Origin: an uncultured Bacteroidota bacterium
GTDB taxonomy: Bacteria > Bacteroidota > Bacteroidia > Bacteroidales > DTGW01
Reading direction: 5' to 3'
DNA: 64,000 nt
NCBI GenBank assembly: GCA_963808135.1
Contig: CAWEFA010000027.1
Span: 66,416-130,415 of the forward strand
Position numbers and translations under genes: made by a program. The notes beneath the pieces are model-generated. The model saw only the letters and a list, made by a program, of their open reading frames with translations. It did not search any database and was not told the DNA's origin. Of the stretch, positions 30,036-62,755 are shown piece after piece (position 1 is the stretch's first letter; each line of letters starts with the position of its first letter).

Positions 30036-30041
30036 TTTTTT

Positions 30042-30533: not shown

Positions 30534-30629
30534 TTTATTATGAAACACCCATGATTCGGCTAATCGCAAACACAAATGAAGATAATGTGGGTGTTCCATA
30601 CGACGAATAAAAAATAAAATTATCTACGT

Positions 30630-35537: not shown

Positions 35538-35540
35538 TTA

Positions 35541-36665
35541 ATGATTCCGGTCGCAAAACCATATTTAACAGCCGATGAAGCCCAGGCCGCTTACGATGTA
35601 ATATTGTCCGGCTGGGTAACACAAGGCCCAAAAGTCCAGGAATTTGAAGAAAAATTTGCGGCATATGTCGGAAGCAGTTACGCTGTTGCTGTATCGAGTT
35701 GTACAACTGCCCTTCATCTTTCGCTTATAGTAGCAGGTATTAAACCAGGCGATGAAGTTATTTGCCCATCCATGTCTTTCATAGCTACAGCAAATGCAAT
35801 TGTCCATGCGGGAGCCAAACCGGTTTTTGCCGAGGTTAACAAACATTTTAACATTGATGCAAAGCATGCCGAGACATTGATAACATCCAAAACAAAAGCT
35901 ATTCTTATTGTACACCAGATAGGCATGCCTGCCGATATTGATACTTTTAAAAATATTTGTAAAAAACATAACTTATTATTAATCGAAGATGCTGCTTGTG
36001 CAATAGGTTCGGCATATAAAGGAAAAAAAATTGGTTCACATTCCGACCTGGTTTGCTTTTCATTTCATCCCCGCAAAGTAATTACCACAGGCGATGGAGG
36101 TATGATTGCCACATCAAATCCTGAATATTATAAACGGTTAAAAGCTCTCCGCCAGCATGCCATGAGCGTAAATGACCTGGAGCGCCATAAATCCGATAAA
36201 ATTATTTTTGAAGAATACCCGGAAGTTGGTTACAATTACCGGATGACAAATATCCAGGCTGCAATCGGAATCAAGCAATTGGAAAAACTGGATTTGATAG
36301 TTAATGAACGTCGCAAAATTGCTTTTCAATACCATGAAGGATTAAAAGATTGTAAGTATTTGGATTTACCAATTGAAGAAGAAGGATATTTTTCAAATTA
36401 CCAATCGTATGCCATTACTTTGAAAGATACGGTTAAAATAAGCAGAAACGAATTTATGCAAAAATTAACCGATGAAGGTATTTCTGTTCGAAGGGGCGTG
36501 ATGACAGCCCATCGGGAAAAAGCATACGCCAATGAAAAAGTTAAGCTTCCAATATCAGAAAAACTTTCGGATAATAGTATTATTTTACCGCTGTTTCACC
36601 CAATGCAAAAGATGGATTATTTAAATATTATAGAAGAAATTAAAAGAATTTTATCGGAATTGTAA
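35541..36665 (+). CDS. DegT-family PLP aminotransferase (ArnB-like)
   Basis: 374 aa. Motifs seen are VLSGWVTQGPKVQEFEEKFA, IEDAACAIGS and FSFHPRKVITTGDGGM (PLP lysine). Confidence 0.85.
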   Translation: MIPVAKPYLTADEAQAAYDVILSGWVTQGPKVQEFEEKFAAYVGSSYAVAVSSCTTALHLSLIVAGIKPGDEVICPSMSFIATANAIVHAGAKPVFAEVNKHFNIDAKHAETLITSKTKAILIVHQIGMPADIDTFKNICKKHNLLLIEDAACAIGSAYKGKKIGSHSDLVCFSFHPRKVITTGDGGMIATSNPEYYKRLKALRQHAMSVNDLERHKSDKIIFEEYPEVGYNYRMTNIQAAIGIKQLEKLDLIVNERRKIAFQYHEGLKDCKYLDLPIEEEGYFSNYQSYAITLKDTVKISRNEFMQKLTDEGISVRRGVMTAHREKAYANEKVKLPISEKLSDNSIILPLFHPMQKMDYLNIIEEIKRILSEL

Positions 36666-36692
36666 TTCAAATATATCTATTTAAAATTTTAA

Positions 36693-38201
36693 ATGAGGGC
36701 TTTACGTATGAATATAAAAATTAAAATTTTACTGATTCTAATAATATTAGGATATTTATTATATAACTTTTTGACTTTGGCGATTTCACCAATACCTTGG
36801 TTTGACGAAGTTTGGTTCGCAAGTATTACCCATTCGTTCATTACAAAAGGGAAATTTTTATTGGAAATATGCCCACTTAGAACTGATAAAGAGGTATTGG
36901 CTTATGGGCCGGTTTATTTTTTATTAACGGCTGCCAGTGTTAAATTGTTGGGTTTTGGTATTTTTTCATTTCGTCTTGTTAATTTCTTATTTGGCTTAGC
37001 AAATATTTATGTTTTTTATAATATCATTAAGTATTTTATTAAAGACAGGCTGTGGGTTTTGTTAACAACCTTGCTTATTATATTTGACAATATTTATTGT
37101 TCAAATATTCATGGAGGAAGGATGGATTCAGTAGCAATATTTTTTTGTTTGGTTTCCTTAAATGCTTTATTAATTGATAAATTAAAACCACGTAATCTCT
37201 TGCTCTCCGGAGTTTTTGCAGTATTAGCAATCCTTACAACGCCCAGGTCGGGATTTTTATTTCTCTCAATAATAGTCTTTATTATTTCCATTGATGGGTT
37301 TAAAGTTCATATAATAGAAAAAATACGCAATTTGATTATTTGGGTTCTGCCAATAATTATTGTTTATGCTTTATGGATTTGGTATGCTTTTGGTAATATC
37401 GGGCAATTTTTAGAATATTATATTCATCCGGGTAAAGTCGCAAACATTCCATTAACTACAAGTGTTGGGGGAAAATTATTTATTCCCCAATACCAGGTTT
37501 TGTTAATTATTACAACAATTATACTTCTTATATCAGGGATATTTAAAAAGAAAATAAAGCCGGATATTTTTATAATAATTTCAATAATAAATATAGTTGG
37601 TTTTTACTTTTTGGTAAATGATTCCGGGGCATATTCGGTATATATAATTTATTTCTTATATGGATTGTTTTGTTATTTACTTTATAAATTTGAGTTTAAG
37701 CAAAACTTACAAAAGTTTAAATTCGCAATTTATGCTCTTGTTCTATTTGTAAACCTGTGTATTTTTTCAATTAAAACAATTACGGTATTTGCTTGTTGGG
37801 AAGCAAGGGATTTTCATAAAATCGACCAAATAGTAAAAGCAAATATTTCTCAGGGTGCAAAAGTAGTTGGCTGCGACAGGTATTATTATTCGGTTATAAA
37901 AAATAATGACTATTTTCAAACTGTTGAACGTCCTAAAAGCAACCTGGAAAGAGCGGAATATCACCGGAACCAGTTTAATTTCGAATATCTCATTATTAGC
38001 GATGAAATAGAAAAATCTAAACCCGATATATTAAAACAATATAATAATGGAAGTTTAATTTTAGTTTCGCATTTTATGTTGAAAGGAACAGGAATAATAA
38101 ATAAAATTAATAAAATAACAGGGATGAAAATTAGCGAATCCTATAATGGTGAAATTTATAAAAGGAAATTAAATAATAATACTATAATAAAACAGTTATA
38201 A
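36693..38201 (+). CDS. GT-C-fold polytopic glycosyltransferase (ArnT/PMT-like)
   Basis: 502 aa with about 11-13 TM helices. An acidic motif (PWFDEVWFA) follows the first TM helix and there is a C-terminal soluble domain. It follows the ArnB/ArnC-like genes directly. Confidence 0.6.
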   Translation: MRALRMNIKIKILLILIILGYLLYNFLTLAISPIPWFDEVWFASITHSFITKGKFLLEICPLRTDKEVLAYGPVYFLLTAASVKLLGFGIFSFRLVNFLFGLANIYVFYNIIKYFIKDRLWVLLTTLLIIFDNIYCSNIHGGRMDSVAIFFCLVSLNALLIDKLKPRNLLLSGVFAVLAILTTPRSGFLFLSIIVFIISIDGFKVHIIEKIRNLIIWVLPIIIVYALWIWYAFGNIGQFLEYYIHPGKVANIPLTTSVGGKLFIPQYQVLLIITTIILLISGIFKKKIKPDIFIIISIINIVGFYFLVNDSGAYSVYIIYFLYGLFCYLLYKFEFKQNLQKFKFAIYALVLFVNLCIFSIKTITVFACWEARDFHKIDQIVKANISQGAKVVGCDRYYYSVIKNNDYFQTVERPKSNLERAEYHRNQFNFEYLIISDEIEKSKPDILKQYNNGSLILVSHFMLKGTGIINKINKITGMKISESYNGEIYKRKLNNNTIIKQL

Positions 38202-38376: not shown

Positions 38377-39792
38377 ATGAAATTATCTGTAATTATTACC
38401 TCATACAATTATGATAAATTCTTAAGCAGGGCAATCAGAAGTGTGCTTCAACAGTCCTTAGATAAAGCCTTATATGAAGTTATTGTCATTGATGATGCTT
38501 CTACAGACAATACCAAACTTATTCTTGAGCCTTTTGAAGATATTTGCAGAATTTTTCATCTTGAAAAAAATGTAGGCATAGCAGAAGCCAGAAATATTGG
38601 TATCAAAAAAGCCAGGGGACAATTTGTAATTTTCGTTGATGCCGATGACTATATTCACTATGAAATGTTAAAAACGCAATTATTGTTTTTAGAGGAGAAT
38701 AATTCTTTAGACGCTGTATCAATAGATTATTACACGGTTAATGAAAAGGGAGATCATCTTAATCATATTTCTGCAGATGAAAATCCTATTGCATGCGGCA
38801 TAATGTTTAGGAAAGATCATCTCATAGATATTGGTATGTACGATCCGGCATTTAAGGCGCGGGAAGAAGAAGATCTTCGGGCTCGTTTTCAGGAAAAATA
38901 TAAAATTTACAATATAATTTTACCTTTATATAGATATCGGAAACACGAAAATAATCTGACAAATGATATAAGTTTAATGCAGGAATTTCGCGAAAAACTC
39001 AGTAAAAAATTAAAAAAACAAAAGAATAATCCTAATATAATAGCTATTATTCAGGCCCGCGTTGGCTCGTCCAGGTTACCGGGAAAAGTTTTACTGCCAG
39101 TTCAGGGGAAAACCGTACTGGAACATGTTGTCGAAAGGGTAAGCAGAAGCGCTTACTTAAACGATGTAATTGTTGCCACCACAACAAACAGCAATGACGA
39201 CGGAATAGCAGCCTTAACTAAAAAAACTAACTGCAAAGTTTACAGGGGTTCGGAAAATGATGTGTTGGACAGGTATTATCAAGCGGCAACACAATTTTCA
39301 GCCGAGGTGGTTGTCCGGGTAACTTCGGATTGCCCGCTTATCGATCCTTCTGTTATTGATTTGGTTATAGAAAAGTTTTTGAATAGCAAATCCGATTATA
39401 CTTCAAATACTTTGAAAGTTCCCTTCCCGGATGGACAGGATGTGGAAGTGTTTACTTATAAATCGCTTGAAAAAGCATGGAATGAAGCCAAATTATTATC
39501 TGAAAGAGAACATGTAACTCCATACATTAAAAATAATTCTTCTCTTTTTAAAGTAAACTGGATTGAAGGGAAACAAGAGCAAAGCAAATACCGCTGGTGC
39601 CTTGACGAGCCTAAAGACCTCGAGCTTATTACTGCCATTTACGATGCTTTGTATCCAAAAAATAAACAATTTGGAATGAAAGAAATTTTGGAATTGTTAG
39701 AAGAACAACCAACGCTTAAAAATATCAACAGTCATATAATCCGCGACGAAGGATATTTAAAATCATTAAAACAGGATAAATTAATAAAATAA
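38377..39792 (+). CDS. Fusion protein: N-terminal GT2 glycosyltransferase plus C-terminal SpsF-type cytidylyltransferase
   Basis: 471 aa. Residues 1 to ~200 read LSVIITSYNYDKFL and VIVIDDASTDNT (GT2). From ~226 the sequence is IIAIIQARVGSSRLPGKVLLPV...VIVATTTNSNDD...YRGSENDVLDRYY...VVRVTSDCPLIDP (acylneuraminate/SpsF-type cytidylyltransferase). Confidence 0.75.
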   Translation: MKLSVIITSYNYDKFLSRAIRSVLQQSLDKALYEVIVIDDASTDNTKLILEPFEDICRIFHLEKNVGIAEARNIGIKKARGQFVIFVDADDYIHYEMLKTQLLFLEENNSLDAVSIDYYTVNEKGDHLNHISADENPIACGIMFRKDHLIDIGMYDPAFKAREEEDLRARFQEKYKIYNIILPLYRYRKHENNLTNDISLMQEFREKLSKKLKKQKNNPNIIAIIQARVGSSRLPGKVLLPVQGKTVLEHVVERVSRSAYLNDVIVATTTNSNDDGIAALTKKTNCKVYRGSENDVLDRYYQAATQFSAEVVVRVTSDCPLIDPSVIDLVIEKFLNSKSDYTSNTLKVPFPDGQDVEVFTYKSLEKAWNEAKLLSEREHVTPYIKNNSSLFKVNWIEGKQEQSKYRWCLDEPKDLELITAIYDALYPKNKQFGMKEILELLEEQPTLKNINSHIIRDEGYLKSLKQDKLIK

Positions 39793-39796
39793 CTTT

Positions 39797-41102
39797 ATGG
39801 GCAAATCACAGGAATTATATTTACGGGCAAAGAAAATTATTCCCGGGGGCACACAGCTTCTTTCCAAAAGGCCGGAGATGTTTTTACCGGATCAATGGCC
39901 GGCTTATTATAACAGGGCAAAGGGTTGTGAAATTTGGGATTTGGATGGGAAACATTACTACGATATGGGCCTCATGGGAGTTGGTGCAAATGTTTTAGGT
40001 TATGCTAATGATGAAGTTGACACTGCTGTAATAAAAGCTATTAAATCCGGAACAAATAGCACTTTGAATTGCCCGGAAGAAATAAAATTGGCTGAAATGC
40101 TTTGTTCAATTCATCCCTGGGCAGAGATGGTCAGGTATGCACGTACCGGCGGCGAGGCAATGACTATAGCAGTAAGAATAGCCAGGGCCAAAACCGGCAA
40201 GAGTAAAATATTATTTTGCGGGTATCATGGTTGGCATGATTGGTATTTAACGGCCAATCTTTCGGAAGATAAATTAAAACATGGCCATTTACTCCCGGGA
40301 CTTGAACCGAACGGGGTTCCTGTTGAATTGTTAAATACATCTACTACATTTCAATACAATAATACTGAAGAATTTCTTCGGAAACTTTCGGAGAATAACG
40401 ATCAAATAGCTTGTGTTGTAATGGAGTCGGTTCGTAACTTTGAACCCGAAAAGGAATTCTTAAATACGCTAAGGAATGAAACCAGGGAAACGGGGAATCA
40501 TTTTAATAATCGATGAAATAACTGCAGGGTTTCGGCTCAATATGGGAGGGGCTCATTTAAGGTACAACCTGGAACCCGACATTGCAGTTTTCGGCAAGGC
40601 TATGAGCAACGGATATCCAATGGCGGCAATTATTGGAAAACGTTTTGTAATGGAAGCGGCTCAAAATTCTTTTATCAGCAGCTTATTTTGGACAGAAAAA
40701 ATTGGGCCGGTCGCTTCAATAACAACAATTGAAATTATGCAGGATCCAAAGATTTTTCAGACAATAAAATCAAATGGTGAAAAAATTTCAAATGGGTTAA
40801 AAAAGGCAGCTGACGAAACAAATATTGAATTATCTATAACCGGCAATCCTGCCATTTTGGGTTTTTCAATACAACATCAAAATCCTTTGGTAGTAAAAAC
40901 CTACTTCATCCAGGAACTCTTAAAAAAAGAATTTATCAGTACTTTTGCATATTATTCATCAATTTCCCATACTGATGCGATTATAAATAATTATTTGGGC
41001 GAAGTAAAATCCGTGTTCAAAAAAATAAAAGAAAACTTTGATATTCTTGAGAAACTTTTAGAAGGCGCCGTTTGTCATGCAGGTTTTAAAAGATTAACGT
41101 GA
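39797..41102 (+). CDS. Class-III PLP aminotransferase (glutamate-1-semialdehyde aminomutase-like), split by one frameshift
   Basis: Built from ORFs 39797..40516 and 40476..41102. Motifs seen are GGTQLLSKRPE and GYHGWHDW. The second ORF starts RGIILIIDEITAGFR and contains FGKAMSNGYP (PLP lysine). The frames must join inside the 40476..40516 overlap, plausibly at the G3/A3 runs 40485..40490. Confidence 0.75.
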
Positions 41103-41647
41103 TGCAAATAAATGGTGAAAAAATATATTTAAAGAGGCTTAATGTCGAAGATGTTACAGCCAATTATGTAACCTGGATGTCCGACCCAGAAGTTTGCAAA
41201 TACCTGGAAAGTAAATGGCAAAGCCATACTCTGGAAAGTATCAGAAAATATGTTGATGGGCTTTCAAAAAGCCCGTCAAATTATTTGATGGGTATTTTTA
41301 ATATCACCGACAATAAACATATCGGCAATATTAAGTTGGGAAACATTCATAAAGTTCACCGTTATTGCGATTTAGGCTTGCTGATTGGCGAGAAAGAATT
41401 CTGGGGAAAAGGAATTGCAACGGAGGCAATTACTTCGGCCACAAAATATGGGTTTGAAATTTTGAACCTTCATAAAATTTTTGCAACGGTTTGGGAACCT
41501 AATGTCGGCTCTTACAAAGCTTTTATTAAAGCCGGTTATGTTGAAGTCGGTATTTTTAAAAAGCATATTTTCCTTGATGGAAAATATGTTGATGAATACA
41601 TTCTCGAAATAATTAATAATAATGAAACGCACAACAAATCCCTTTGA
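41099..41647 (+). CDS. GNAT N-acetyltransferase (RimL/PseH-like)
   Basis: 182 aa with an overlapping start. Motifs seen are LKRLNVEDVTANYVTWMSDPEV and GEKEFWGKGIATEA (acetyl-CoA loop). Confidence 0.7.
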   Translation: MMQINGEKIYLKRLNVEDVTANYVTWMSDPEVCKYLESKWQSHTLESIRKYVDGLSKSPSNYLMGIFNITDNKHIGNIKLGNIHKVHRYCDLGLLIGEKEFWGKGIATEAITSATKYGFEILNLHKIFATVWEPNVGSYKAFIKAGYVEVGIFKKHIFLDGKYVDEYILEIINNNETHNKSL

Positions 41648-42440
41648 AGTAAATTTTAAAGAAAAGTTCAGCTTAGATGGCAAAGTAATTATTATTACCG
41701 GCGCTTGCGGCCTGATAGGAAAAGCGTTTTGTGAAGCCATTGCCCAATTCGGGGCGCATGTTGTTGCAGCCGATCTTTTACAAGCCTCTCCAAAGTCATT
41801 TGCCGAAAGCTTAGAAAAAAAGCATGGAAGAAAAATGTTGGGATACGATCTCGATGTGGTTAAAAAAGGTTCCATAATTGGCCTGAAAGAAGATGTGTTG
41901 GCAAGATTTAGTAAAATAGATGGTTTGGTGAATGCACATCAAAATAAAACCAAAAATTTTTTTCAACCGTTTGAAATTTATTCTGAAGAAAATTGGGACG
42001 CTGTTGTTGAAACAAATTTAAAAGGCACATTTTTAACATGCCAGATTATTGGCGGATGGATGGCTGAACATAATGGCGGATGTATTGTGAATATTCCTTC
42101 AACTTACAGCGTTGTGGCACCGAACCAAAATCTGTACAAAGGCACCTCGCTTGGTTGCCCTGCTGCATATTCAGCTTCAAAGGGTGGAATTGATGCATTG
42201 TCCAGGTATCTTGCTTCATATTGGGCAAACAAAAACGTAAGGGTTAATATGATAACACCTCATGGAGTTTGGAATAACCATGAAGAACAATTCGAGAAAA
42301 ATTTCTCAAATTTTTCCCCAATGCAACGCATGAGTTACAACCATGAAGTTGCTGGCGCTTTAGTATATCTGCTCTCTGATGCTTCTTCGTATGTTACAGG
42401 TCATAACATGCTGGTCGAAGGCGGCTGGACAGTTTGGTAG
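41622..42440 (+). CDS. Short-chain dehydrogenase/reductase
   Basis: 272 aa with GKVIIITGACGLIGKAF (TGxxxGxG) and YSASKGG (YxxxK). Confidence 0.8.
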   Translation: MKRTTNPFEVNFKEKFSLDGKVIIITGACGLIGKAFCEAIAQFGAHVVAADLLQASPKSFAESLEKKHGRKMLGYDLDVVKKGSIIGLKEDVLARFSKIDGLVNAHQNKTKNFFQPFEIYSEENWDAVVETNLKGTFLTCQIIGGWMAEHNGGCIVNIPSTYSVVAPNQNLYKGTSLGCPAAYSASKGGIDALSRYLASYWANKNVRVNMITPHGVWNNHEEQFEKNFSNFSPMQRMSYNHEVAGALVYLLSDASSYVTGHNMLVEGGWTVW

Positions 42441-42503
42441 TTTAACAATAAGAATCAGGTAACTAAAGTTCATATTATTTCCTTATAAAAAGAAGCGACA
42501 AGA

Positions 42504-43325
42504 ATGAGAAATTTATCACAGATAAACCATCCAATTTATATTGATGAAATTACACCATCATTCATAACGCGATATTTCGAATATTCCTGGGCATCTGAAC
42601 AATTTAATAATGAAGATATTATTTTGGATATTGGTTGCAATACAGGCATGGGTTTAGATATATTATCGAAACACGTTAAAACAGTTTGGGGAACCGATGT
42701 TATTCCGGATGTCATAAATTCATTGAATGAAAAATATAAAAACAACAATAAAATAAAAGTTAAATTGGTGCCGGAAGATAATGAAATTTGTTTTAGCGAT
42801 AATTATTTTGATGGGATAGTAGCTTGTAATTTAATTGAGCATATCAATTCTCCCGATATTTTTCTTGAAAAATTAAAGAAATGCCTTAAACCAAAGGGCA
42901 GAATAATTTTTTCAACAGTAAATAGGAAATTGAGATTGTATTGGTGGCAAAAACCATATAATCCTTTTCATTACAACGAATTTTCCCACAATAGTTTAAG
43001 AAAAACTCTATTAAGGCACTTTAACAAAGTTGAGATTTTTGGAGTATTTACATCGCCTCCATTTTTCCCTGATTATATAAAACTATCGTCAACAAAAAAA
43101 TTTGATAATGGTATAAGGTATCCATTATATCATTTTTATTATAAGAATATTCGCCGGTTAATTCGCCCAATAACATCTATTCGAAAAAAGAAGTATATTA
43201 TCAACGAAACAAACAATTCGGGCATTGAGAAAAAATATACAATCAATGAAGCATTAAGTTTTATTAATATAAAAAATACGGATTTAGATAAATGCTCAGA
43301 GATATTAGCTATTGCTTATAAATAA
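42504..43325 (+). CDS. Class I SAM-dependent methyltransferase
   Basis: 273 aa with motif I ILDIGCNTGMGLD and post-I/II segments (GIVACNLIEHI, LKPKGRIIFST). Confidence 0.7.
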   Translation: MRNLSQINHPIYIDEITPSFITRYFEYSWASEQFNNEDIILDIGCNTGMGLDILSKHVKTVWGTDVIPDVINSLNEKYKNNNKIKVKLVPEDNEICFSDNYFDGIVACNLIEHINSPDIFLEKLKKCLKPKGRIIFSTVNRKLRLYWWQKPYNPFHYNEFSHNSLRKTLLRHFNKVEIFGVFTSPPFFPDYIKLSSTKKFDNGIRYPLYHFYYKNIRRLIRPITSIRKKKYIINETNNSGIEKKYTINEALSFINIKNTDLDKCSEILAIAYK

Positions 43326-43462
43326 ACGCATAATTATCTTGAAAATAATTATTCCCGTTATTACAACTTACCTTTCAACAATAGTTCTCATTCAAATCAA
43401 GCAGATTAATATTTTTAAATAAACTAATAATTCAAGGCTTTGCCAAAAAAGAATTTTAAAAA

Positions 43463-44524
43463 ATGAAAATAACACTAACAGAATTTATTAGCTCGTATAA
43501 ACCGGATATTTTAGTAAAACCATATATTATTGCTGAAGCAGGCGTTAACCATGAAGGTAAAATGGATTTTGCCAAACGTTTAATTGACGAGGCATTTGAA
43601 GGTGGGGCACAAGCAATAAAATTTCAAACATATAAAGCAGAAACAATAGCTTCTAAAAATAGCCCATCATATTGGGATATTACAAAAGAACCAACCAAAA
43701 GCCAATATGAATTGTTTAAAAAATACGATAAATTCTGGAAAAAAGAATATGAAGAATTAAAAACCTATTGCGACAAAACCGGCATTGAATTTTTATCAAC
43801 TCCATTCGATATTGAATCGGCAAAATTTTTAAACGATCTCATGCCTGTTATTAAAATATCATCTTCTGATATTACAAACCTGCCGTTTATAGAATTTCTG
43901 TGCTCTTTCGATAAGCCTGTTATTTTATCAACCGGCGCGAGTTATCTTTGGGAAATACAACAAGCAGTGGAACTCATTGAGAAAAATGGGAATCAATTAT
44001 GCCTGATGCATTGTATTTTAAATTATCCTACAATGGATGAAAATGCCAATTTAGGAATGATAAAAGATATTATAGCTCACTTTCCGCAACATGTTGCCGG
44101 ATACAGCGATCATACGCTACCCGGGAATATGGATATTTTAATTACCGCATTTTTACTTGGGGCTGCTGTTATCGAAAAACATTTTACATTCGATAAAACT
44201 TTACCGGGGAATGATCATTATCATGCAATGGACAAGAATGATTTGAAAAACTTCTGGAAAAAAATAGATTACCAATTAAATATACTTGGAGAAATTAAAA
44301 TTAATTCATTAGAAAGCGAAGAACCAGCCAGAAAAAATGCCAGGAGGTCGTTGGTAGCTTCAAGAGATATTCCGAAAGGGAAAATTATTGATCCCGCTGA
44401 TTTAACATGGAAAAGGCCTGCGTTTGGAATTTCACCGAAATTCTATAAAGAAATTATTGGTAAAAAAGTTACTAAGGATATAGAAAAAGATGAAATTATT
44501 TATTGGCAATACCTTGAAATATGA
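43463..44524 (+). CDS. NeuB/SpsE/PseI-family nonulosonate (sialic-acid-like) synthase with SAF domain
   Basis: 353 aa. Motifs seen are IIAEAGVNHEGKMDFAKRLIDEAFEGGAQAIKFQTYK, MHCILNYPT and YSDHT, plus a C-terminal SAF-like segment RRSLVASRDIPKGKII. Confidence 0.85.
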   Translation: MKITLTEFISSYKPDILVKPYIIAEAGVNHEGKMDFAKRLIDEAFEGGAQAIKFQTYKAETIASKNSPSYWDITKEPTKSQYELFKKYDKFWKKEYEELKTYCDKTGIEFLSTPFDIESAKFLNDLMPVIKISSSDITNLPFIEFLCSFDKPVILSTGASYLWEIQQAVELIEKNGNQLCLMHCILNYPTMDENANLGMIKDIIAHFPQHVAGYSDHTLPGNMDILITAFLLGAAVIEKHFTFDKTLPGNDHYHAMDKNDLKNFWKKIDYQLNILGEIKINSLESEEPARKNARRSLVASRDIPKGKIIDPADLTWKRPAFGISPKFYKEIIGKKVTKDIEKDEIIYWQYLEI

Positions 44525-45199
44525 ATCCCGAGATATCAAAGCACAATAAACGACCTTCTTAGTTTAAATGTCAGCTCGTATTGCGAACTTGGCCCGGGAG
44601 AAGGTTCTGTTGCAATAGGTTTAAAAAAAGCCGGGAAGAATGTAGTTTGCCTGGAAGCCCCGTGGGATTTTGATAAAAGGACTTCCTGGGGCAAAGAGAA
44701 CAATATTAAAATTTATAAAGGGGAATTTTTCTCAACGGATTTCTCAAAAATAATTGAAGAAGAAATCGAATGTTTTTCATTAATTCATGCTATTGCCCAC
44801 CTAAGGTTTCCGCCTCACCTGATACTTGAAAAAGCATTTAAAAAATTGAAGCCGGGAGGTTATTTTTATCTTTCTACTGTAAATGCAGGATCGCTTGACA
44901 AAGTAATAAAACTGGCTAAAGGACAAGCCATAACCGATGAAGTGAAGAAATTTGTTGAAATGGGAGAGGATTATAAAAAATACTGCAACCCTTCAGGAAA
45001 ATATATGATTTGGGATAGCTGGATGCACGTTAAAGAATACAGGGCATTTGAATTAAAAAAGATATTTGAAGAAGAGAACTTCAAAGTTATTAAGCTCTTT
45101 CACCGGAATAATTTTAAAAATTGGGAAAATGATATTATTTGTAAAATTTGGCCGCACCTCTCCGAAGAAATAATTATAGTTGGTAAAAAAAATGATTAG
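44521..45199 (+). CDS. SAM-dependent methyltransferase with an early frameshift
   Basis: The frame of ORF 44846..45199 is open back to 44525 and reads YCELGPGEGSVAIGLKKAGKNVVCLE...LKPGGYFYLSTVN (motifs I and II). It has no ATG in that frame. An ATG at 44521 (ATGA overlap with the neuB-like stop) is in the neighbouring frame and stops after 13 codons. The join lies within 44524..44560. Confidence 0.55.
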
Positions 45200-46460
45200 C
45201 GCTATTGAAAAATATTTTGATCGTTTATGGCCTATTTGCAGGAGTATTACGGGGGAAGGATTAAGGGAAACTTTGAAAATTCTACAGGAGATAATTCCTT
45301 TGAAACTTACTGAAATTCCAACCGGCGCTAAAGTCTTTGACTGGGAAATCCCTAAAGAATGGAACATTTCTGACGCTTATATAATCACGCCAGAAGGCAA
45401 GAAAATAGCAAATTTTAAAAATAATAACCTGCATGTTGTTAATTATTCTGTTCCTGTTAATGAAACTATAGAATATCCGCAATTGATACAGCACATTTAC
45501 ACATTGCCTGATTTACCTGATGCGGTTCCATATATAACATCATATTATAAGGAAAATTGGGGATTTTGTTTATCCCATAATGAATTTCTTACACTTCCTA
45601 AAGAAGGGAAATATAAAGTATTTATTGATTCAAATTTAAAAGAAGGTTCGTTAACTTATGGCGATCTTGTTCTTCCAGGCGATTCTGATAAGGAAATTCT
45701 TTTTTCAACTTATGTCTGTCATCCGAGCATGGCAAATAATGAGCTTTCAGGGCCTCTTGTAACAGCTTTTTTATATCAGAAAATCAAAGAACTGACCAAC
45801 AGAAAATATACTTACCGATTTGTTTTTGTTCCTGAAACCATTGGAGCAATTGCTTACCTTAATAAAAATGGGAATTATTTAAAAGATAAACTTGAAGCCG
45901 GATTTGTAATTACATGTTGTGGCGATAAAGGCAATTTCACTTATAAACGGTCAAAAGCTGAAGGAACCCTGGTTGATAGGGCAACAGAACATTTTTTAAA
46001 AAATACCCAAGAACATTTTAAGATTATTGATTTCAAAATAGGCGGTAGCGACGAAAGACAATATTGTTCCCCAGGTTTTAATTTGCCGGTTGGTTCGTTA
46101 ATGAGAACTATGTACAAATGTTACCCGGAATACCATACTTCATTGGATAACAAAAATTTTATTTCTTTCCCTTCGTTAATCGAAACAATTGATGCATATT
46201 TTGATATTGTCAGAATTTTCGAATTAAATGATAAGTATGTTAATAAAATTAAATATGGAGAACCTTTTTTAAGCAAACATAATTTGTATCCCACTGACAC
46301 AAATCACCAGAAAATGGCGGATTCTACTGCCATGTTATTACATTTTCTTGCCTATGCCGATGGGACTAAAGACTTAATTGAAATTGCCGAAAAGTTTAAT
46401 AGCTGTATACTTGATTTTGCCGATATAGTTGAAACCTGCAAAAAAAATAATTTAATTTAA
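45192..46460 (+). CDS. Aminopeptidase-like-domain protein (DUF4910/COG4310 type) of polysaccharide loci
   Basis: Lies within ORF 45180..46460, with the ATG at 45192. MISAIEKYFDRLWPICRSITGEGLRETLKILQEIIPL...VFDWEIPKEWNI is the pattern I associate with this family. Confidence 0.55.
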   Translation: MISAIEKYFDRLWPICRSITGEGLRETLKILQEIIPLKLTEIPTGAKVFDWEIPKEWNISDAYIITPEGKKIANFKNNNLHVVNYSVPVNETIEYPQLIQHIYTLPDLPDAVPYITSYYKENWGFCLSHNEFLTLPKEGKYKVFIDSNLKEGSLTYGDLVLPGDSDKEILFSTYVCHPSMANNELSGPLVTAFLYQKIKELTNRKYTYRFVFVPETIGAIAYLNKNGNYLKDKLEAGFVITCCGDKGNFTYKRSKAEGTLVDRATEHFLKNTQEHFKIIDFKIGGSDERQYCSPGFNLPVGSLMRTMYKCYPEYHTSLDNKNFISFPSLIETIDAYFDIVRIFELNDKYVNKIKYGEPFLSKHNLYPTDTNHQKMADSTAMLLHFLAYADGTKDLIEIAEKFNSCILDFADIVETCKKNNLI

Positions 46461-46461
46461 G

Positions 46462-47892
46462 GTGCTTAAATTTATTCTTGGAAATTCCATACTCTATACT
46501 TTTGCTAATTATTTGCCGCTTTTGGCGAATATTATTATTTTACCAATCATTACCCCATATCTTACAACATTCGATTATGGCATTTATGGTTTAGTGTTTG
46601 CATATATTTCGGGTCTGTCGTTTCTTAGCGACCTGGGATTAACTGTTTTATTCCAGAACAGTTATTTTAAAACAAATGAAAATTATAAAGAATTATGGTC
46701 GAAATACCTCGGTTTAAGGTTAATTGGCAATACAATTTATTCAATAATACTTATTGTTGTATTATATTTTTCATTAAACAATAAAGTAAATTCTGGTGTC
46801 CTGGTAGAAATATTACTTTTAATAGGAATCCCTGTATTATTTTTTGAAGTTACAAAATCAATTGGAATAAGATGGTGCCAATATTCAGGCAATCACAGGA
46901 AGGTTCATATTGCCACTTTTACCGGCGCTATTATTTCGCTCACATCGACATACTATTGTATTTACCATTTAAGGATGGGCTATTTGGGCTGGTTTGTTTC
47001 AAACTTGGTTACAAATTTTTTTCTCTTTATATATTATTCAAAAATAATTTATATCGACTTAAAAGTGATACCAAAATTTTTTCTGGATTTACCATTTGTT
47101 AAAAAAAGCCTGAAAGTATCCCTTCCTTTGGTGCCTCATTCTTTTTCCGGTTATCTGATCAATACTTCCGACAGGGTTATGCTGGATTGTTTTAAAGTAA
47201 ATATCAATTCGATTGGGAATTATAATTTAGCATATTCGTATTCTAACTATTTCCAGTCATTTAACAATTCAATGGGAACGGTGTTGACTCCTATTTATCT
47301 TAGCAGGTTAGAAAAAAAGAATGAAGACAAGTCGGTAGCTATATTAATAATAAGCTGGATGATTTTGTCCGTTTTCATAAGCTTCAATTTATGCTTATGG
47401 AGCAGGGAAATTTTTGCCTTTTTATACAGAAACGCCAGTCTTAACAGCGTTTATCCTTATTGTATATTTATTCTTATGGGTATGAACTATTTCCCGATGT
47501 ACAGCGCTGCAATACTCAAACTAATTTATCTTGAACAAACTAAAACAATTCTTCGAATATCGGTAATTGGCGGAGTAATTAATATATTATTAAACATTTT
47601 GTTAATTAATGCTTATGGAATTAAAGCTACTGTATTTAGTTCATTTATAAGTTATCTCTATATGGGTTTTAGCGGATTTTTTATTTCTTCAATCAGAAAG
47701 CATATTAGTTTTAATTATAGGCCTTTATTTTGGTTATCGCTAATTATAGTATTATCCATTTTGGTATTCTATGCAGTTAATTTATCCTTTATTCAAAAAA
47801 TTCCAATAACTCTATTTTCCTTATTATCCGTTTCAATTCTTTATTTCTCAAATAAAAAATCATTATCAGGTATTTTGAAACAAGATTCATGA
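46462..47892 (+). CDS. wzx: Wzx-type (MOP superfamily) polysaccharide flippase
   Basis: 476 aa with a GTG start and about 12-14 TM helices. The position and topology are typical for Wzx. Confidence 0.65.
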   Translation: MLKFILGNSILYTFANYLPLLANIIILPIITPYLTTFDYGIYGLVFAYISGLSFLSDLGLTVLFQNSYFKTNENYKELWSKYLGLRLIGNTIYSIILIVVLYFSLNNKVNSGVLVEILLLIGIPVLFFEVTKSIGIRWCQYSGNHRKVHIATFTGAIISLTSTYYCIYHLRMGYLGWFVSNLVTNFFLFIYYSKIIYIDLKVIPKFFLDLPFVKKSLKVSLPLVPHSFSGYLINTSDRVMLDCFKVNINSIGNYNLAYSYSNYFQSFNNSMGTVLTPIYLSRLEKKNEDKSVAILIISWMILSVFISFNLCLWSREIFAFLYRNASLNSVYPYCIFILMGMNYFPMYSAAILKLIYLEQTKTILRISVIGGVINILLNILLINAYGIKATVFSSFISYLYMGFSGFFISSIRKHISFNYRPLFWLSLIIVLSILVFYAVNLSFIQKIPITLFSLLSVSILYFSNKKSLSGILKQDS

Positions 47893-47965
47893 AAGAAAAC
47901 AACTCCGACTTTATAAGCAATGTTTATTTCAAAATAAATGATGATGTAATTTTTAATTTATTTCA

Positions 47966-49375
47966 ATGGCGTTAGATATTAAATTCACCGATTTTAAAAA
48001 TTATTTTTATTCAAAAGTAACAGACTTTTCAATTTTTAATTGCCAGGAATTTAACCTGCTCAAAGTTGTCCTTGAAGGATTGGTTGTAAATTATAACAAA
48101 TCCTCCCAAAAAGTTAGGAATTATGTGTTTTATCCATTATGGTTTTTTCAGCTTATTCTTTTAATAAAAAGATTTAAGAAAAAAAACTTAATTAAATCAT
48201 ATCAAAAAGAATTAGAACTGCAACAACAAAAAGAAAATTTGATTATCGATGTGGGGCGAATTGTGTTCGATGAAAACAACCAGCCTTTATCTACTTATTT
48301 CCATAATATCATTAATAAACTTGGCAAAGAAAACACGACCCTTATTATTGAAGAAATAATACATAAGAATGTATTTTACAATTTCTATTATAAGGACCTG
48401 GCCAAAATCTTTTATAACTCTAAGTTAACCGATGAAAACAAATTATTAAGAAAAGAACTCATAAGAGTATTTAATCTTATAAAAAGCAAAAGAATTTTCA
48501 ACTCCGGCGAAATGGAGAATATTAAAATCGCTTTTAACAATTTTTTTAATCATTACAGAATCTGGGATGTAATTATTAAAGCTTTAAAACCCCAAAAAGC
48601 ATTTTTTGTTTGTCATTATCATAAAGAGGGTTGTATATTGGCGTTGAGAAGGAATAATGTAAAAACCATCGAACTTCAGCATGGATTAATAGCCCCGCAG
48701 GATATTTTTTATTGCTTCCCGCCACAGGTAAAAAGTATAGCAAATAAGGCGCTTTTTGCTGATAAAATTTACACCTATGGAAAATACTGGAAAGAAATTT
48801 TACTAACCGGGGTTGAATATAGTGAAAAGCAGATTGAAATTTTAGGGTACTTTGTTAGCACGAATTCTGTGTTTTTTGAGAACGATAGAATATTTCTTGA
48901 TAATTTATGTTTAAATAAAAAGGTTATACTAATTACAACTCAAAATAACATTACCGGTTATTTTATTAAATATATTGAAAATATGAGTTTGAAATTGGCC
49001 CAAACAAATCCGGAATACATAATAGTCGTCAAACCACATCATGGTGAAAAATCAGAAGCTTATAAAAAACTTGAAACTGCCGGGAATGTGTTTGTTCTTA
49101 ATATTAATACAGACATCCTTTACAAATATGCGGAAATAAATATTTCGGTATACTCAACCACGCTTTTCGAAGCCTACCGGCATTCAATTACCTGCTTTGC
49201 TTTAAAGGCAGAACAATACATTGATTATGTTGCAACAATAATTAATTCAGGCATTGCATTTCCCTTGGAGTTTGATCAGAATCCTGTAGAAGAACTAAAA
49301 AAAATAAATAAAACCAGGAATTCTTTTCAAAATATTCAATTCTTTTTCAGTGATTTTAATCCTGAGCGTTTATGA
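47966..49375 (+). CDS. Uncharacterised 469-aa soluble protein (candidate novel glycosyltransferase)
   Basis: It has no TM segments. Two alpha/beta-like halves surround FFVCHYHKEGCILALRRNNVKTIELQHGLI. It sits directly after wzx and downstream of the nonulosonate module. Confidence 0.4.
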   Translation: MALDIKFTDFKNYFYSKVTDFSIFNCQEFNLLKVVLEGLVVNYNKSSQKVRNYVFYPLWFFQLILLIKRFKKKNLIKSYQKELELQQQKENLIIDVGRIVFDENNQPLSTYFHNIINKLGKENTTLIIEEIIHKNVFYNFYYKDLAKIFYNSKLTDENKLLRKELIRVFNLIKSKRIFNSGEMENIKIAFNNFFNHYRIWDVIIKALKPQKAFFVCHYHKEGCILALRRNNVKTIELQHGLIAPQDIFYCFPPQVKSIANKALFADKIYTYGKYWKEILLTGVEYSEKQIEILGYFVSTNSVFFENDRIFLDNLCLNKKVILITTQNNITGYFIKYIENMSLKLAQTNPEYIIVVKPHHGEKSEAYKKLETAGNVFVLNINTDILYKYAEINISVYSTTLFEAYRHSITCFALKAEQYIDYVATIINSGIAFPLEFDQNPVEELKKINKTRNSFQNIQFFFSDFNPERL

Positions 49376-52361: not shown

Positions 52362-52519
52362 AACAATTTCTAAATAAAGGATATTAAAACCTCTGGACAA
52401 AGTCTTGTGCCAAAACAGATATTCGCTTTACAAACAAAGTTTATTATCCCGAGGTAGGGTCTCGAAGAATTCTTTTAATTAAAATCTAAATTCCAATTAG
52501 TTTAATTTTGTTAATTAAT

Positions 52520-53581: not shown

Positions 53582-53586
53582 AACAA

Positions 53587-54066: not shown

Positions 54067-54076
54067 TAAAATAATT

Positions 54077-62516: not shown

Positions 62517-62755
62517 AGTTCTTTCGTCCCTTTGGGACTTAATGATATGTTGATGACGTTTAACCCTGCCATAAATGGCTGGGCTATTTTCAACGAAGTC
62601 AGCCTCACCGCCGGCCGCGTCATGGCCAAACGCCGAGCGAGGTTTGCGGCCTGCCGGAAAGCAAACCGCTCTGGCGCGCGGGACGCGGCTTCGTCGTCCG
62701 CGACCTGCCGTGAACGGTTGTCCCCTGCCGCTGGCCGCAAACCAGCAAACCAGCA

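Follow-up and report, generated by a model that had tools for sequence, protein, structure and literature searches.

A conserved gene cassette for a putative CMP-activated amino-nonulosonic acid in an uncultured Bacteroidota bacterium

Introduction

Ulosonic acids with an extra amine are known from Flexibacter maritimus, which has an 8-amino nonulosonate, and from Shewanella, which has Kdo8N (PMC3210612). The SpsF-like protein FlmC provides the CMP-activation step in a Caulobacter set with which flagellin modification can be reconstituted in E. coli (PMC7591256).

Several related gene clusters pair an aminotransferase with a cytidylyltransferase. In Pseudosulfitobacter pSMR1-1, an aminotransferase of the type described here (454 bits) is fused to a cytidylyltransferase, and the cluster is also complete for Pse (PseB, PseC, a PseG::GNAT fusion, and PseI); its extra members are an aldo-keto reductase and a GNAT of the cassette type. 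Halorussus combines a cytidylyltransferase and aminotransferase with a GFO oxidoreductase, and Legionella Sg6 combines a GSA-type aminotransferase and cytidylyltransferase with an aldo-keto reductase. The oxidoreductase family differs between such clusters, whereas the aminotransferase and cytidylyltransferase are constant.

Here we analyze a locus within a 64,000-nucleotide stretch of an uncultured Bacteroidota bacterium (the window). An original prediction had read positions 38377 to 46460 as a nonulosonic acid module with an atypical local assortment of enzymes. This interpretation is partly supported: the set is instead one copy of a widespread cassette, for which we found no published description in the literature searched.

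Gene content of the module

Profile scores recovered the predicted genes and coordinates (NeuB, cytidylyltransferase, class-III aminotransferase, GNAT, SDR, methyltransferases, and DUF4910 protein), all on the + strand and tightly packed. The canonical partners are absent from the module, as predicted, with no Epimerase_2, Polysacc_synt_2-type, or Glyco_tran_28_C gene among the window's scanned ORFs; 1.7 kb upstream of the module there are, however, an extended SDR (34545-35537) and a DegT aminotransferase (35541-36665). No protein reached the curated cutoffs for NeuB/LegI, PseI, PseH, PseB, PseC, LegB, or LegC, and the enzyme set is thus non-canonical.

The NeuB-family synthase with a C-terminal SAF domain (43463-44524, + strand) scores 249.5 bits for NeuB (PF03102) and 65 bits for SAF. 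It falls below the cutoffs of both NeuB_NnaB (332.2 versus 399.65 bits) and PseI (250.5 versus 340.25 bits) and is 32 to 34% identical to N. meningitidis NeuB, B. subtilis SpsE, and annotated PseI proteins. Aligned to 1xuz, it conserves R314 and the equivalents of E25, K53/Q55, H215, and H236, and the metal- and PEP-binding motifs are kept; E134 is replaced by D, as in 81/81 sequences of its clade. Comparison with KDO8P and DAHP synthases, proposed as the critical check, revealed no resemblance. Instead, motifs and identities mark the protein as a true nonulosonate-synthase family member, in a tight clade of its own (64 to 72% identity) that is neither PseI nor LegI.

The failure of this clade at both equivalog cutoffs and its D at the E134 position could reflect a different substrate, with PEP being condensed with a pentose, heptose, or sugar phosphate to an octulosonic or higher ulosonic acid. 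The same is suggested by a Methylomagnum gene cluster of related type, in which a HAD-IIIA phosphatase and a transketolase that is split accompany a cytidylyltransferase, an aminotransferase, an SDR, and a short NeuB. We regard this as very improbable, since the full NeuB and SAF architecture and all other catalytic motifs are as in characterized nonulosonate synthases, and the cassette contains neither a transketolase nor a phosphatase.

The class-III (GSA-aminomutase-like) aminotransferase (39797-41102, + strand; Aminotran_3) is present as predicted, but its gene is split by a frameshift that had been missed. Overlapping ORFs at 39797-40516 and 40476-41102 match Aminotran_3 profile positions 10-223 and 222-355, and the shift falls at a G4/AA run (GGGG/AA) at about 40,490-40,497. 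The repaired protein (433 aa) aligns over 100% of its length with intact homologues of 436 to 450 aa (55 to 61% identity) and contains FGKAMSNGYP, the motif of the PLP lysine. Sugar C-6' aminotransferases are among the class-III relatives of known structure.

The GNAT N-acyltransferase (41099-41647, + strand; Acetyltransf_3, 78.2 bits) scores 48.2 bits against the PseH model, under its cutoff of 93.1. Orthologues occur in cassette loci, and in two of these (L031 and L075) a formyltransferase fills the GNAT slot. The classical SDR (41622-42440, + strand; adh_short_C2, 147.6 bits) most resembles PRK09186 (195 bits; cutoff, 255) and PtmA (150 bits; cutoff, 350), followed by gluconate-5-DH and KduD-type models. 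Its nearest named models are free-sugar-acid enzymes (gluconate-5-DH, KduD, and mannonate oxidoreductase), and its orthologues in cassettes score 420 to 483 bits. The neighborhood comparison suggested in the original prediction revealed strong conservation of the aminotransferase, N-acyltransferase, and SDR trio across loci; the tightest unit is aminotransferase, SDR, and NeuB (L014, L023, and L026).

The module opens with ORF 38377-39792, which had been assigned to an SpsF-type cytidylyltransferase. This domain fills only the C-terminal half (39034-39792, + strand; aa ~220-471), fused to a GT2 glycosyltransferase that had escaped notice. The cytidylyltransferase, presumably a CMP-nonulosonate synthetase, matches CTP_transf_3 (129.4 bits, aa 222-421) and PDB 6oew "Cytidylyltransferase" (E value, 1.5e-46); no separate start codon lies close to where the domain begins. 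The GT2 domain (38377-39021, + strand; aa 1-215) has a GT-A core and matches Glycos_transf_2 (120.4 bits, aa 4-135) and PDB 6p61 "Glycosyltransferase" (E value, 3.9e-58 over aa 3-215). Its DXD motif, DADD (aa 88-91), and its REEEDL motif are kept without change in 19/19 cassette orthologues. One 506-aa protein (P0377) has the identical fusion architecture, with 33% identity over the full length; in other cassettes the GT2 is a stand-alone gene of ~213 aa.

Accessory and downstream genes

SAM-dependent methyltransferase 1 (42504-43325, + strand; Methyltransf_23, 68 bits) is outside the conserved core: 80 loci yielded a single weak relative (L070), and different methyltransferases or an MBOAT occupy the position between SDR and NeuB in other loci. 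Methyltransferase 2 (about 44525-45199, + strand; Methyltransf_23, 47.4 bits) is an optional cassette member, whose orthologues immediately follow NeuB in L024, L026, L031, L067, and L073 (280 to 372 bits). Its place after the synthase had been predicted, but not its missing start codon. The open frame (44525-45196) continues directly from the NeuB TGA, in the same frame as NeuB, and contains no ATG, GTG, or TTG before 44846.

With lesions in methyltransferase 2, the aminotransferase, a GFO gene (near 29,445, at a T5 run), and a GT4 gene (near 57,170, at an A run), four genes are disrupted in ~30 kb. If these were real mutations, the module would be a decaying, non-functional copy here, a reading to which we assign a low probability. 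Apart from the single shift, the aminotransferase shows no lesion and can be aligned along its entire length with intact homologues, and the remaining cassette genes are undamaged and keep their invariant motifs. The GFO, aminotransferase, and GT4 frameshifts all lie at short homopolymers, as expected of indels in a long-read assembly. With homopolymer-associated frameshifts in two other window genes, assembly indels are a serious possibility. The contig also has a probable chimeric join, pointing to assembly problems.

The DUF4910/DUF2172/HTH_47 metallopeptidase-like protein (45180-46460, + strand; 335.6, 121.9, and 48.5 bits in Pfam) belongs to the Cj1295 / CA_C2195 family and matches PDB 3k9t (E value, 3.5e-106). 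Its CHPSMANNELSG, PETIG, and YHTS motifs are invariant among 28 orthologues. By analogy with Cj1295, it probably remodels an N-acyl group.

The predicted extent of the module encloses its named genes but stops short of a conserved member. Beyond a Wzx-type flippase (46462-47892, + strand; Polysacc_synt, 63 bits, multiple hydrophobic segments), which also follows DUF4910 in several cassettes, lies a soluble GT-B protein without a Pfam match (47966-49375, + strand). This protein is conserved after DUF4910 in most cassettes (140 to 379 bits), and its sialyltransferase/TagF/KpsC-like motifs make it a candidate CMP-nonulosonate transferase. Its AF2 model (pLDDT, 94) gives a Foldseek match to the GT-B fold (E value, 1e-9), and the family profile matches the HP-motif region of KpsC (E value, 0.003). 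Some homologues carry PF04464, and NCBI names one a sialyltransferase. Residues H217, E221, Q238-H239-G240, K356, H358, and S397-T398 are invariant. The top Foldseek rank is held by UDP-GlcNAc 2-epimerases; instead of a transferase, the protein could be a NeuC-like enzyme that has diverged.

Proposed pathway

Gene content, domain identities, conservation, and fusions are what the analysis shows. We see about an even chance that the cassette is self-contained and serves to make, CMP-activate, and transfer an N-acylated amino-nonulosonic acid, dispensing with the usual 4,6-dehydratase, DegT aminotransferase, and hydrolase or 2-epimerase steps. In the reaction order that we infer, a nine-carbon 2-keto-3-deoxy acid would be formed by the NeuB/SAF synthase from PEP and a common hexose or N-acetylhexosamine. 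The SDR would then oxidize one hydroxyl of this acid, the aminotransferase would convert the carbonyl to an amine, and the GNAT (a formyltransferase in some relatives) would acylate it. The cytidylyltransferase would form the CMP-sugar, the GT-B protein would transfer the sugar to a glycan, and the adjacent Wzx flippase would export the glycan. Both methyltransferases would add accessory decorations.

That an amine is made and then acylated is suggested by the replacement of the GNAT by a formyltransferase and by the tight association of aminotransferase, SDR, and NeuB. The amino group is probably added after the sugar backbone is built, because the Pseudosulfitobacter aminotransferase is fused to a cytidylyltransferase beside a complete Pse set, and because Halorussus and Legionella Sg6 pair the same two enzymes with varying oxidoreductases. 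As it keeps the DXD motif, the GT2 probably uses an NDP-sugar; it may release a free hexose for NeuB, like PseG in the Pse pathway, or add a neighboring sugar. A source of free ManNAc or mannose is not encoded, unless, speculatively, the GT2 is a hydrolase.

A PseG-like GT2 that hydrolyzes an NDP-sugar would also suit the reverse order. Here the SDR, aminotransferase, and GNAT would act on an NDP-hexose (for example UDP-GlcNAc, by C4 oxidation without dehydration, amination, and acetylation), NeuB would condense the free diamino sugar with PEP, and the cytidylyltransferase would activate the product, a Leg/Pse-like 5,7-diacylamido acid with the 9-hydroxyl kept. The logic of these steps mirrors that of the Pse and Leg pathways and leaves no core enzyme without a function, not even the GT2, which has an invariant DXD and, at only ~213 aa, no obvious acceptor domain. 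The GT2 is present in stand-alone cassettes and missing from Pse-type clusters with PseG. Moreover, the usual substrates of sugar N-formyltransferases and PseH-like GNATs are nucleotide-linked amino sugars. We nevertheless find this order improbable. The families known to act on NDP-sugars include neither classical (as opposed to extended) SDRs nor class-III aminotransferases. The cytidylyltransferase fusions, to the aminotransferase and to the GT2, are easier to reconcile with adjacent late steps than with steps on either side of NeuB, and the pre-condensation steps of Pse clusters do not need the same aminotransferase.

Distribution and independence of the cassette

The cassette of GT2, N-acyltransferase, cytidylyltransferase, class-III aminotransferase, SDR, NeuB, DUF4910, and GT-B protein was found in 34/80 species-level Flavobacteriales/Bacteroidia loci. 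MAGs from these groups keep the order GT2, GNAT, CTP_transf_3, Aminotran_3, adh_short, NeuB+SAF, and DUF4910, then the no-Pfam GT-B protein or Wzx. Clustering is not obligatory, as 41/80 related NeuB genes stand alone in housekeeping contexts.

Canonical Pse/Leg/Neu early genes are not consistently present near cassettes. Among 127 flanking proteins from 12 cassette loci, Epimerase_2 (n = 2), DegT (n = 2), and Epimerase (n = 3) were rare, and Polysacc_synt_2 was not among the 25 commonest families. The scarcity of canonical genes in cassette flanks, and their absence from the window's scanned ORFs apart from one Arn-like unit, argue for independence from them. This unit comprises an ArnC-like (ArnC/PgfS-like) GT2, the upstream extended SDR and DegT, and a PMT_2 GT-C enzyme. 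The suggestion that DegT/LbH/oxidoreductase genes elsewhere in the locus supply the missing steps is unlikely: these genes belong to separate coherent units (the Arn-like unit and two GFO-oxidoreductase/LbH-acetyltransferase/DegT trios), and dozens of genomes carry the cassette without such neighbors.

A dependent cassette would receive a Pse- or Leg-type diacetamido-trideoxyhexose from elsewhere, perhaps via the upstream SDR and DegT, and its SDR, aminotransferase, and GNAT would add a third N-acyl group (on C8 or C4, for instance). The product would be a triamino nonulosonate resembling the one from Flexibacter maritimus, and a member of the Flavobacteriaceae is known to have an 8-amino-pentadeoxy-nonulosonate (PMC3210612). 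The same aminotransferase type occurs with a cassette-type GNAT and an oxidoreductase in complete Pse clusters and in Legionella Sg6. In Pse-type clusters the aminotransferase and the oxidoreductase come with the full canonical pathway, and the cassette of the Flavobacteriales might also need canonical genes at other sites of the genome. The GNAT has weak PseH similarity, and the upstream SDR is best matched in NCBIfam by LegB (188.8 bits) and the DegT by PseC (325.6 bits) and LegC (292 bits). These scores are, however, far under the cutoffs (93.1 bits for PseH, 475 for LegB, 423.5 for PseC, and 420 for LegC), and the flanking GT2 and GT-C enzymes place the SDR/DegT pair in the Arn-like unit. 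Together with the lack of a PseG/NeuC-type hydrolase among the window's scanned ORFs, the rarity of dehydratase, DegT, and epimerase genes in the flanks, and the separate NeuB clade, this makes a dependent cassette rather unlikely.

The self-contained cassette that we favor also lies on chromosome CP117812.1 of the cultured Lentisphaera profundi, and OZ253948.1 is a further complete genome with it. The cassette is widespread and found in more than one phylum.

A NeuB-family synthase and an SpsF-type cytidylyltransferase

The original prediction placed a NeuB/SpsE/PseI-type synthase at 43463-44524, and our searches confirmed a NeuB TIM barrel (249.5 bits; GA 22.1) with a C-terminal SAF domain (65 bits; GA 21), both passing their Pfam thresholds. 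The protein aligned with N. meningitidis NeuB (PDB 1xuz), B. subtilis SpsE (1vli), and C. jejuni PseI (8h2c) at E values of 1e-42 to 1e-47. Compared with 1xuz, the motifs that bind metal and PEP are kept, as is the arginine of the SAF domain (equivalents of E25, K53/Q55, H215, H236, and R314), and the equivalent of E134 is Asp in 81 of 81 members of the synthase clade; in N. meningitidis NeuB, these positions serve catalysis and the binding of metal and PEP. The synthase scored below the cut-offs of both TIGR03569, the NeuB/LegI equivalog (332.2 versus 399.65 bits), and TIGR03586, the PseI model (250.5 versus 340.25 bits), and is 32% identical to annotated PseI proteins. In a tree built with references, it fell into a tight, separate clade (64-72% identity) that is only 32-34% identical to NeuB, SpsE, and PseI. 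Clustering with KDO8P- or DAHP-type enzymes, named in the original prediction as a result that would refute it, was not seen. More than 100 proteins in the database share 68-75% identity with the synthase.

An SpsF-type cytidylyltransferase had been predicted within 38377-39792, and this held: CTP_transf_3 matched there with 129.4 bits (GA 22.6), PDB 6oew matched at an E value of 1.5e-46, and the gene is co-located with the NeuB-family synthase. We therefore assign it as an SpsF-type enzyme, putatively for a CMP-nonulosonate. What had been missed is its fusion partner, an N-terminal GT2 domain (aa 4-135, 120 bits, ahead of CTP_transf_3 at aa 222-421, 129 bits). The cytidylyltransferase half has no internal start codon, and the library protein P0377, 33% identical and the sole equivalent fusion found, has the same architecture. 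We take the fusion as real, despite its A-rich linker (38,995-39,036). Two other library proteins of about 500 aa, P0361 and P0362, were considered as GT2-cytidylyltransferase fusions and rejected, as BLASTP showed each to consist of two tandem SpsF-type domains. Many further SpsF-type domains lie within multidomain proteins of 540-1000 aa; together with the tandem proteins, these indicate that this cytidylyltransferase is often a fusion partner. In the set of Caulobacter genes that reconstitutes flagellin modification in E. coli, CMP activation is carried out by FlmC, which is SpsF-like (PMC7591256).

The DXD motif of the GT2 is invariant, which argues for an NDP-sugar as its likely substrate. 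The GT2 is present in stand-alone cassettes and missing from Pse-type (pseudaminic acid) clusters that have PseG; that it sets free the hexose for NeuB is an appealing but speculative idea. The PDB entries nearest to the DUF4910, GT2, and cytidylyltransferase parts of the cassette (3k9t, 6p61, and 6oew) bear generic molecule names, and 6p61, 6oew, and 6ncs are probably Leptospira proteins.

Gene content and integrity of the window's copy

All genes from 38377 to 49375 lie on the forward strand, overlapping or separated by short gaps, and a promoter/terminator scan, whose promoter part is uninformative for Bacteroidota, found no intergenic terminator inside the module. Following the fusion gene are a class-III aminotransferase in two halves (39797-40516 and 40476-41102, covering Pfam profile positions 10-223 and 222-355), a GNAT (41099-41647, Acetyltransf_3), a classical SDR (41622-42440), and a first methyltransferase (42504-43325), the last two also assigned by Pfam. 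A second methyltransferase and an aminopeptidase-like protein had been predicted after the synthase, and both are there. The former (44525-45196, Methyltransf_23, 47 bits) is an open frame after the NeuB stop codon that lacks a start codon before 44846, and the latter (45180-46460) is a DUF4910/DUF2172/HTH_47 protein (336, 122, and 48.5 bits). A Wzx-type flippase (46462-47892, Pfam) and a protein without a Pfam match (47966-49375), characterized with an AlphaFold2 (AF2) model and Foldseek, complete the run.

The aminotransferase is broken by a frameshift at a GGGG/AA run near 40,490. Rejoined, it is 433 aa long and aligns over its full length with intact homologues of 436-450 aa at 55-61% identity. 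Two other genes of the window are split in the same manner: a GFO/IDH/MocA (GFO) oxidoreductase (29033-30035) at a T5 run near 29,445 and a GT4 glycosyltransferase (56595-57800) at an A run near 57,170. Three homopolymer-linked frameshifts suggest indel errors typical of long-read assemblies. In addition, GC content in 61,700-64,000 jumps at roughly 61,760 from about 27-30% to about 55-65%. This GC-rich tail (about 58% GC) has the look of foreign DNA, either inserted or joined on in a chimeric assembly; its end resembles Proteobacteria NRPS genes (69-71% identity), and Rfam and ARAGORN found no rRNA or tRNA in it. The frameshifts may instead mark real pseudogenes, so that this copy of the cassette may be damaged rather than carry sequencing errors. 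Given the breaks at homopolymers, the end-to-end aminotransferase alignment, and the GC jump in the contig, we regard assembly indels as the probable cause.

Canonical nonulosonate genes are missing from the module

The usual partners of the sialic (Neu), legionaminic (Leg), and Pse routes had been noted as missing from the module, and profile searches agreed. Among the scanned ORFs of the window that are at least 100 aa long, none matched Epimerase_2 or Glyco_tran_28_C, and none had a Polysacc_synt_2-type best match. The nearest candidates for PseB (45.9 bits; cut-off, 407.75), PseC (325.6; 423.5), PseH (48.2; 93.1), LegB (188.8; 475), and LegC (292; 420) all fell short. Neither the Pse set (PseB, PseC, PseH, and PseG with the synthase) nor the Leg/Neu set (LegB, LegC, and a NeuC/LegG-type Epimerase_2) was found among these ORFs.

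It had also been proposed that the missing steps are borrowed from DegT, LbH acetyltransferase, and oxidoreductase genes elsewhere in the locus. An extended SDR (34545-35537) and a DegT (35541-36665) do lie 1.7 kb upstream, with LegB/RmlB and PseC/LegC as their best models, far below the cut-offs. However, they are flanked by an ArnC/PgfS-like GT2 on one side and a PMT_2 GT-C enzyme on the other and so belong to an Arn-like unit. The remaining candidates form trios of their own, and other cassette loci lack such genes. We therefore rejected borrowing as the main explanation. In the flanks of 12 cassette loci, Epimerase_2 and DegT each account for 2 of 127 proteins and Epimerase for 3 of 127. 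Together with the window scan, this indicates that the cassette usually has no classical early steps nearby.

The Arn-like unit comprises four genes (33614-38201), encoding the polyprenyl-phosphate GT2, the extended SDR, the DegT, and the 502-aa GT-C enzyme, and probably puts an amino sugar on a periplasmic acceptor through a lipid-phosphate carrier. The two GFO/LbH/DegT trios (29033-31730 and 52508-55195) are similar in arrangement to the WbpB/WbpD/WbpE genes for 2,3-diacetamido sugars. The locus begins with a NusG/UpxY-like gene (27689-28186); upstream of that, the minus strand carries Wza- and Wzc-like genes (19529-22593).

The cassette is widespread and coherent

A scan of one genome per species gave 202 relatives, from which 80 loci were kept for comparison. 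The cassette is present in 34 of these. In 41 of the 80, the synthase stands alone in housekeeping surroundings, and these lone copies form one derived clade. For example, in a locus of this Flavobacteriales clade, L009, the NeuB gene (9881-11056) is placed between ribF and an Xaa-Pro aminopeptidase gene. In this and the 40 other such loci, the lone NeuB is about 70% identical to that of the window, its surroundings comprise genes such as ribF, an LRR protein gene, an Xaa-Pro aminopeptidase gene, and rlmN, and no cassette gene was found within 10 kb.

Flavobacteriales metagenome-assembled genomes (MAGs) have the order GT2 (213 aa), GNAT, CTP_transf_3 (251 aa), Aminotran_3 (441-447 aa), adh_short (271 aa), NeuB with SAF (350 aa), an optional gene, and DUF4910 (427 aa), followed by a Wzx flippase and/or a protein of about 460 aa without a Pfam match. 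This set of seven core genes, in unchanged order, was also found in Lentisphaera profundi, a cultured organism (CP117812.1, positions about 2,303,300-2,311,100; L091, 8084-15854), and in one further Bacteroidota MAG, both with an aminotransferase of the window's subtype. The window's aminotransferase is just 27% identical to that of most Flavobacteriales cassettes, whereas its SDR, NeuB, and DUF4910 score 420-630 bits against the cassette orthologues; thus, one slot is filled by two class-III subtypes. The tightest unit is aminotransferase-SDR-NeuB (L014, L023, and L026).

The window departs from the common arrangement in having the GT2 fused to the cytidylyltransferase, the GNAT shifted behind the aminotransferase, and a lineage-specific methyltransferase between SDR and NeuB, a position where other loci have different methyltransferases or an MBOAT inserted. 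The cassette is abundant in uncultured Flavobacteriales and Bacteroidia from water, wastewater, and marine samples and also occurs in Lentisphaera. Next to the cassette in loci L010-L079, asparagine-synthase-like amidotransferases and HisF-like proteins recur, each making up 4 of the 127 flanking proteins; genes of these two types are characteristic of the formation of acetamidino groups on amino sugars.

The neighborhood comparison that the original prediction called for thus found the aminotransferase, N-acyltransferase, and SDR recurring with NeuB in the 34 loci and in L. profundi. The view of the gene set as atypical stood in part: it is non-canonical by the Pse, Leg, and Neu gene sets but no local oddity, being a conserved cassette.

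The DUF4910 protein and the GT-B protein

The DUF4910 protein matched CA_C2195 (3k9t) at an E value of 3.5e-106, with the same three-domain architecture of DUF4910, a DUF2172 insert, and HTH_47. Proteins of the CA_C2195 family bind one Zn and lack the M28 catalytic residues (PMC4000134). The window's protein keeps the equivalents of H189, S191, P225, and H324 of CA_C2195, where H189, D195, and H324 are the single-Zn ligands and S191 and P225 replace M28 catalytic residues. The motif CHPSMANNELSG is invariant in the DUF4910 proteins of the cassette clade, which differ from CA_C2195 in having Asn at the position of Zn ligand Asp195, with an adjoining Glu. Another member of this group (PIRSF015244), Cj1295 of C. 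jejuni, is needed for the 5-N-(di-O-methylglyceroyl) form of Pse, and removal of the N5-acetyl group has been proposed (PMC3068675). The window's protein shares the three-domain architecture with this group, and spsE/spsF-type genes are found alongside. By analogy, N-acyl remodelling by the DUF4910 protein and the methyltransferases is plausible.

In most cassettes, the gene at 47966-49375 comes after DUF4910 or the flippase, and in two loci, L093 and L085, it is paired with the synthase alone. Its product is soluble, and the AF2 model (pLDDT 94) has a GT-B fold (Foldseek E value, 1e-9). Among the invariant residues are those of xEG, KPH(P), and YSTT motifs, similar to motifs found in TagF and in bacterial sialyltransferases. 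The consensus of the family reads KPHPxEK and YSTT, but the window's protein has KPHHGEK. Bacterial GT-B transferases with CMP or CDP donors (sialyltransferase, KpsC, and TagF-like) have an acidic x-E-G motif in the N-terminal part and an HP motif with a downstream S-S/T in the C-terminal part. Three homologues carry PF04464, one is named sialyltransferase, and the family profile reached the HP-motif region of KpsC at an E value of only 0.003. We read the protein as a candidate CMP-sugar transferase. However, UDP-GlcNAc 2-epimerases are its top Foldseek matches, a likeness in fold only, so that it may instead be a divergent NeuC-like enzyme.

Comparison with known nonulosonate systems

The module shares with the CMP-Pse pathway of Campylobacter and Helicobacter (PseB, PseC, PseH, PseG, PseI, and PseF) a NeuB-family synthase, a GNAT N-acetyltransferase, a CMP-transferase step, and a place in a surface-glycan locus, with DUF4910 and methyltransferases alongside as in the C. 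jejuni flagellin locus. It differs in lacking an inverting 4,6-dehydratase, a DegT aminotransferase of its own, and PseG. Against the PseI, PseH, and PseC models, its synthase, GNAT, and aminotransferases do not reach the cut-offs, and its cytidylyltransferase is SpsF-type. Unlike in the CMP-Pse pathway, amination appears to be carried out by the classical SDR and the class-III aminotransferase.

The module also has features in common with the CMP-Leg and sialic acid pathways (LegB/C/H/G/I/F, NeuC/B/A, and B. subtilis Sps): the synthase scores higher on the NeuB/LegI than the PseI model (332 versus 250 bits) and is equally close to SpsE (1vli) and N. meningitidis NeuB, the cytidylyltransferase is of the SpsF type, and the SDR is similar to the PtmA of Leg loci. 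However, the module has no NeuC/LegG Epimerase_2 and no LegB or LegC at cut-off, and its synthase, below the TIGR03569 cut-off, forms a separate clade.

A third group consists of putative Pse clusters that combine the cytidylyltransferase and class-III aminotransferase (Pseudosulfitobacter plasmid pSMR1-1, Legionella pneumophila Sg6/Sg12, and Halorussus). These share with the cassette the aminotransferase subtype (446-454 bits), the SpsF-type cytidylyltransferase, the cassette-type GNAT, and an accompanying oxidoreductase. In contrast to the cassette, they keep the full canonical early steps, lack GT2, DUF4910, and the cassette-type NeuB, and use an aldo-keto reductase or GFO enzyme in place of the SDR.

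The pSMR1-1 locus (L086, 8992-12582) encodes a 677-aa cytidylyltransferase-aminotransferase fusion and a 514-aa PseG-GNAT fusion in one Pse cluster, with an unannotated 444-aa protein without a Pfam match between the GNAT and the former. A related cluster on Methylomagnum ishizawai plasmid pRS11DPr1 (L089, 7961-15443) has the SpsF-type cytidylyltransferase, class-III aminotransferase, and SDR. It also encodes a split transketolase, a HAD-IIIA phosphatase, and a NeuB that is short (301 aa) and lacks the SAF domain. This gene set hints at a sugar-phosphate substrate and, perhaps, a longer-chain ulosonic acid.

A proposed route to an amino-nonulosonate

The synthase and cytidylyltransferase belong to known families, and the module as read from its genes would work like a nonulosonate pathway. 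Our model of the remaining steps draws on four observations. On pSMR1-1, the window's subtype is fused to the SpsF-type cytidylyltransferase, and PseB, PseC, the PseG-GNAT fusion, and PseI are all there, leaving an aldo-keto reductase and a cassette-type GNAT surplus. In Halorussus, the cytidylyltransferase and aminotransferase occur with a GFO oxidoreductase, and in Legionella Sg6, a GSA-type aminotransferase and cytidylyltransferase occur with an aldo-keto reductase (PMC3694923). The library protein P0222 is a further aminotransferase-cytidylyltransferase fusion. Across the three systems, the aminotransferase and cytidylyltransferase are constant and the oxidoreductase family varies, which fits a simple oxidise-then-transaminate pair that acts next to CMP activation, on an already finished backbone. 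The nearest named models of the SDR act on free sugar acids, and solved class-III aminotransferase relatives include sugar C-6' aminotransferases. To our knowledge, neither classical SDRs nor class-III aminotransferases are families known for NDP-sugar chemistry. In two loci, L031 and L075, a formyltransferase occupies the usual GNAT position, suggesting that this slot serves N-acylation of an amine made by the aminotransferase.

We prefer the following order of steps, which, like the choice of hexose and of the carbon to be aminated, is inferred. NeuB would build the sugar acid, the SDR would oxidise a hydroxyl of this product, and the class-III aminotransferase would install an amine, which the GNAT, or the formyltransferase in some relatives, would N-acylate before the SpsF-type enzyme CMP-activates the sugar. 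This proposed logic, hydroxyl oxidation and then transamination on a finished sugar or sugar acid, is shared with Kdo8N biosynthesis in Shewanella and with C-6' amination of aminoglycosides by class-III aminotransferases. Kdo8N is made from Kdo by the oxidase KdnB and the aminotransferase KdnA, of families unlike those of the cassette. Ulosonic acids bearing an additional amine are known, namely an 8-amino-pentadeoxy-nonulosonate from Flexibacter maritimus and Kdo8N from Shewanella (PMC3210612).

More tentatively, the cassette could be a self-contained, cross-phylum amino-nonulosonate route that dispenses with both a nucleotide-sugar 4,6-dehydratase and a hydrolysing 2-epimerase. The short DXD-type GT2 would release a common hexose from its NDP carrier, the NeuB clade would build the nine-carbon acid, and the SDR and the GSA-aminomutase-like aminotransferase would aminate it afterwards, followed by acetylation or formylation. 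We consider this full scheme possible but rather doubtful.

Implications

Nonulosonic acids (sialic, legionaminic, and pseudaminic) cap bacterial surface glycans and affect recognition by the immune system, susceptibility to phages, and the assembly of flagella. The routes characterised so far all start from a nucleotide-hexosamine and proceed through dehydration, DegT amination, and release by a hydrolase or epimerase. The cassette retains just the synthase and the CMP step, the rest being replaced by a class-III aminotransferase, a classical SDR, a small GT2, and DUF4910. Our literature search found no publication on the cassette or its product, returning just gene tables, along with the papers on DUF4910 and on Cj1295.

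If the self-contained route is true, the product would be a nonulosonate class chemically undescribed so far, for example one with the 9-hydroxyl kept and an extra N-acyl group, and the aminotransferase/oxidoreductase pair would also account for the 8-amino nonulosonates of Flavobacteriia. Identifying the product would extend nonulosonate biosynthesis by a branch, show what is done by the class-III aminotransferase that accompanies SpsF-type cytidylyltransferases across many phyla, and give a testable role to DUF4910 and to the proteins of PDB entries 3k9t, 6p61, and 6oew.
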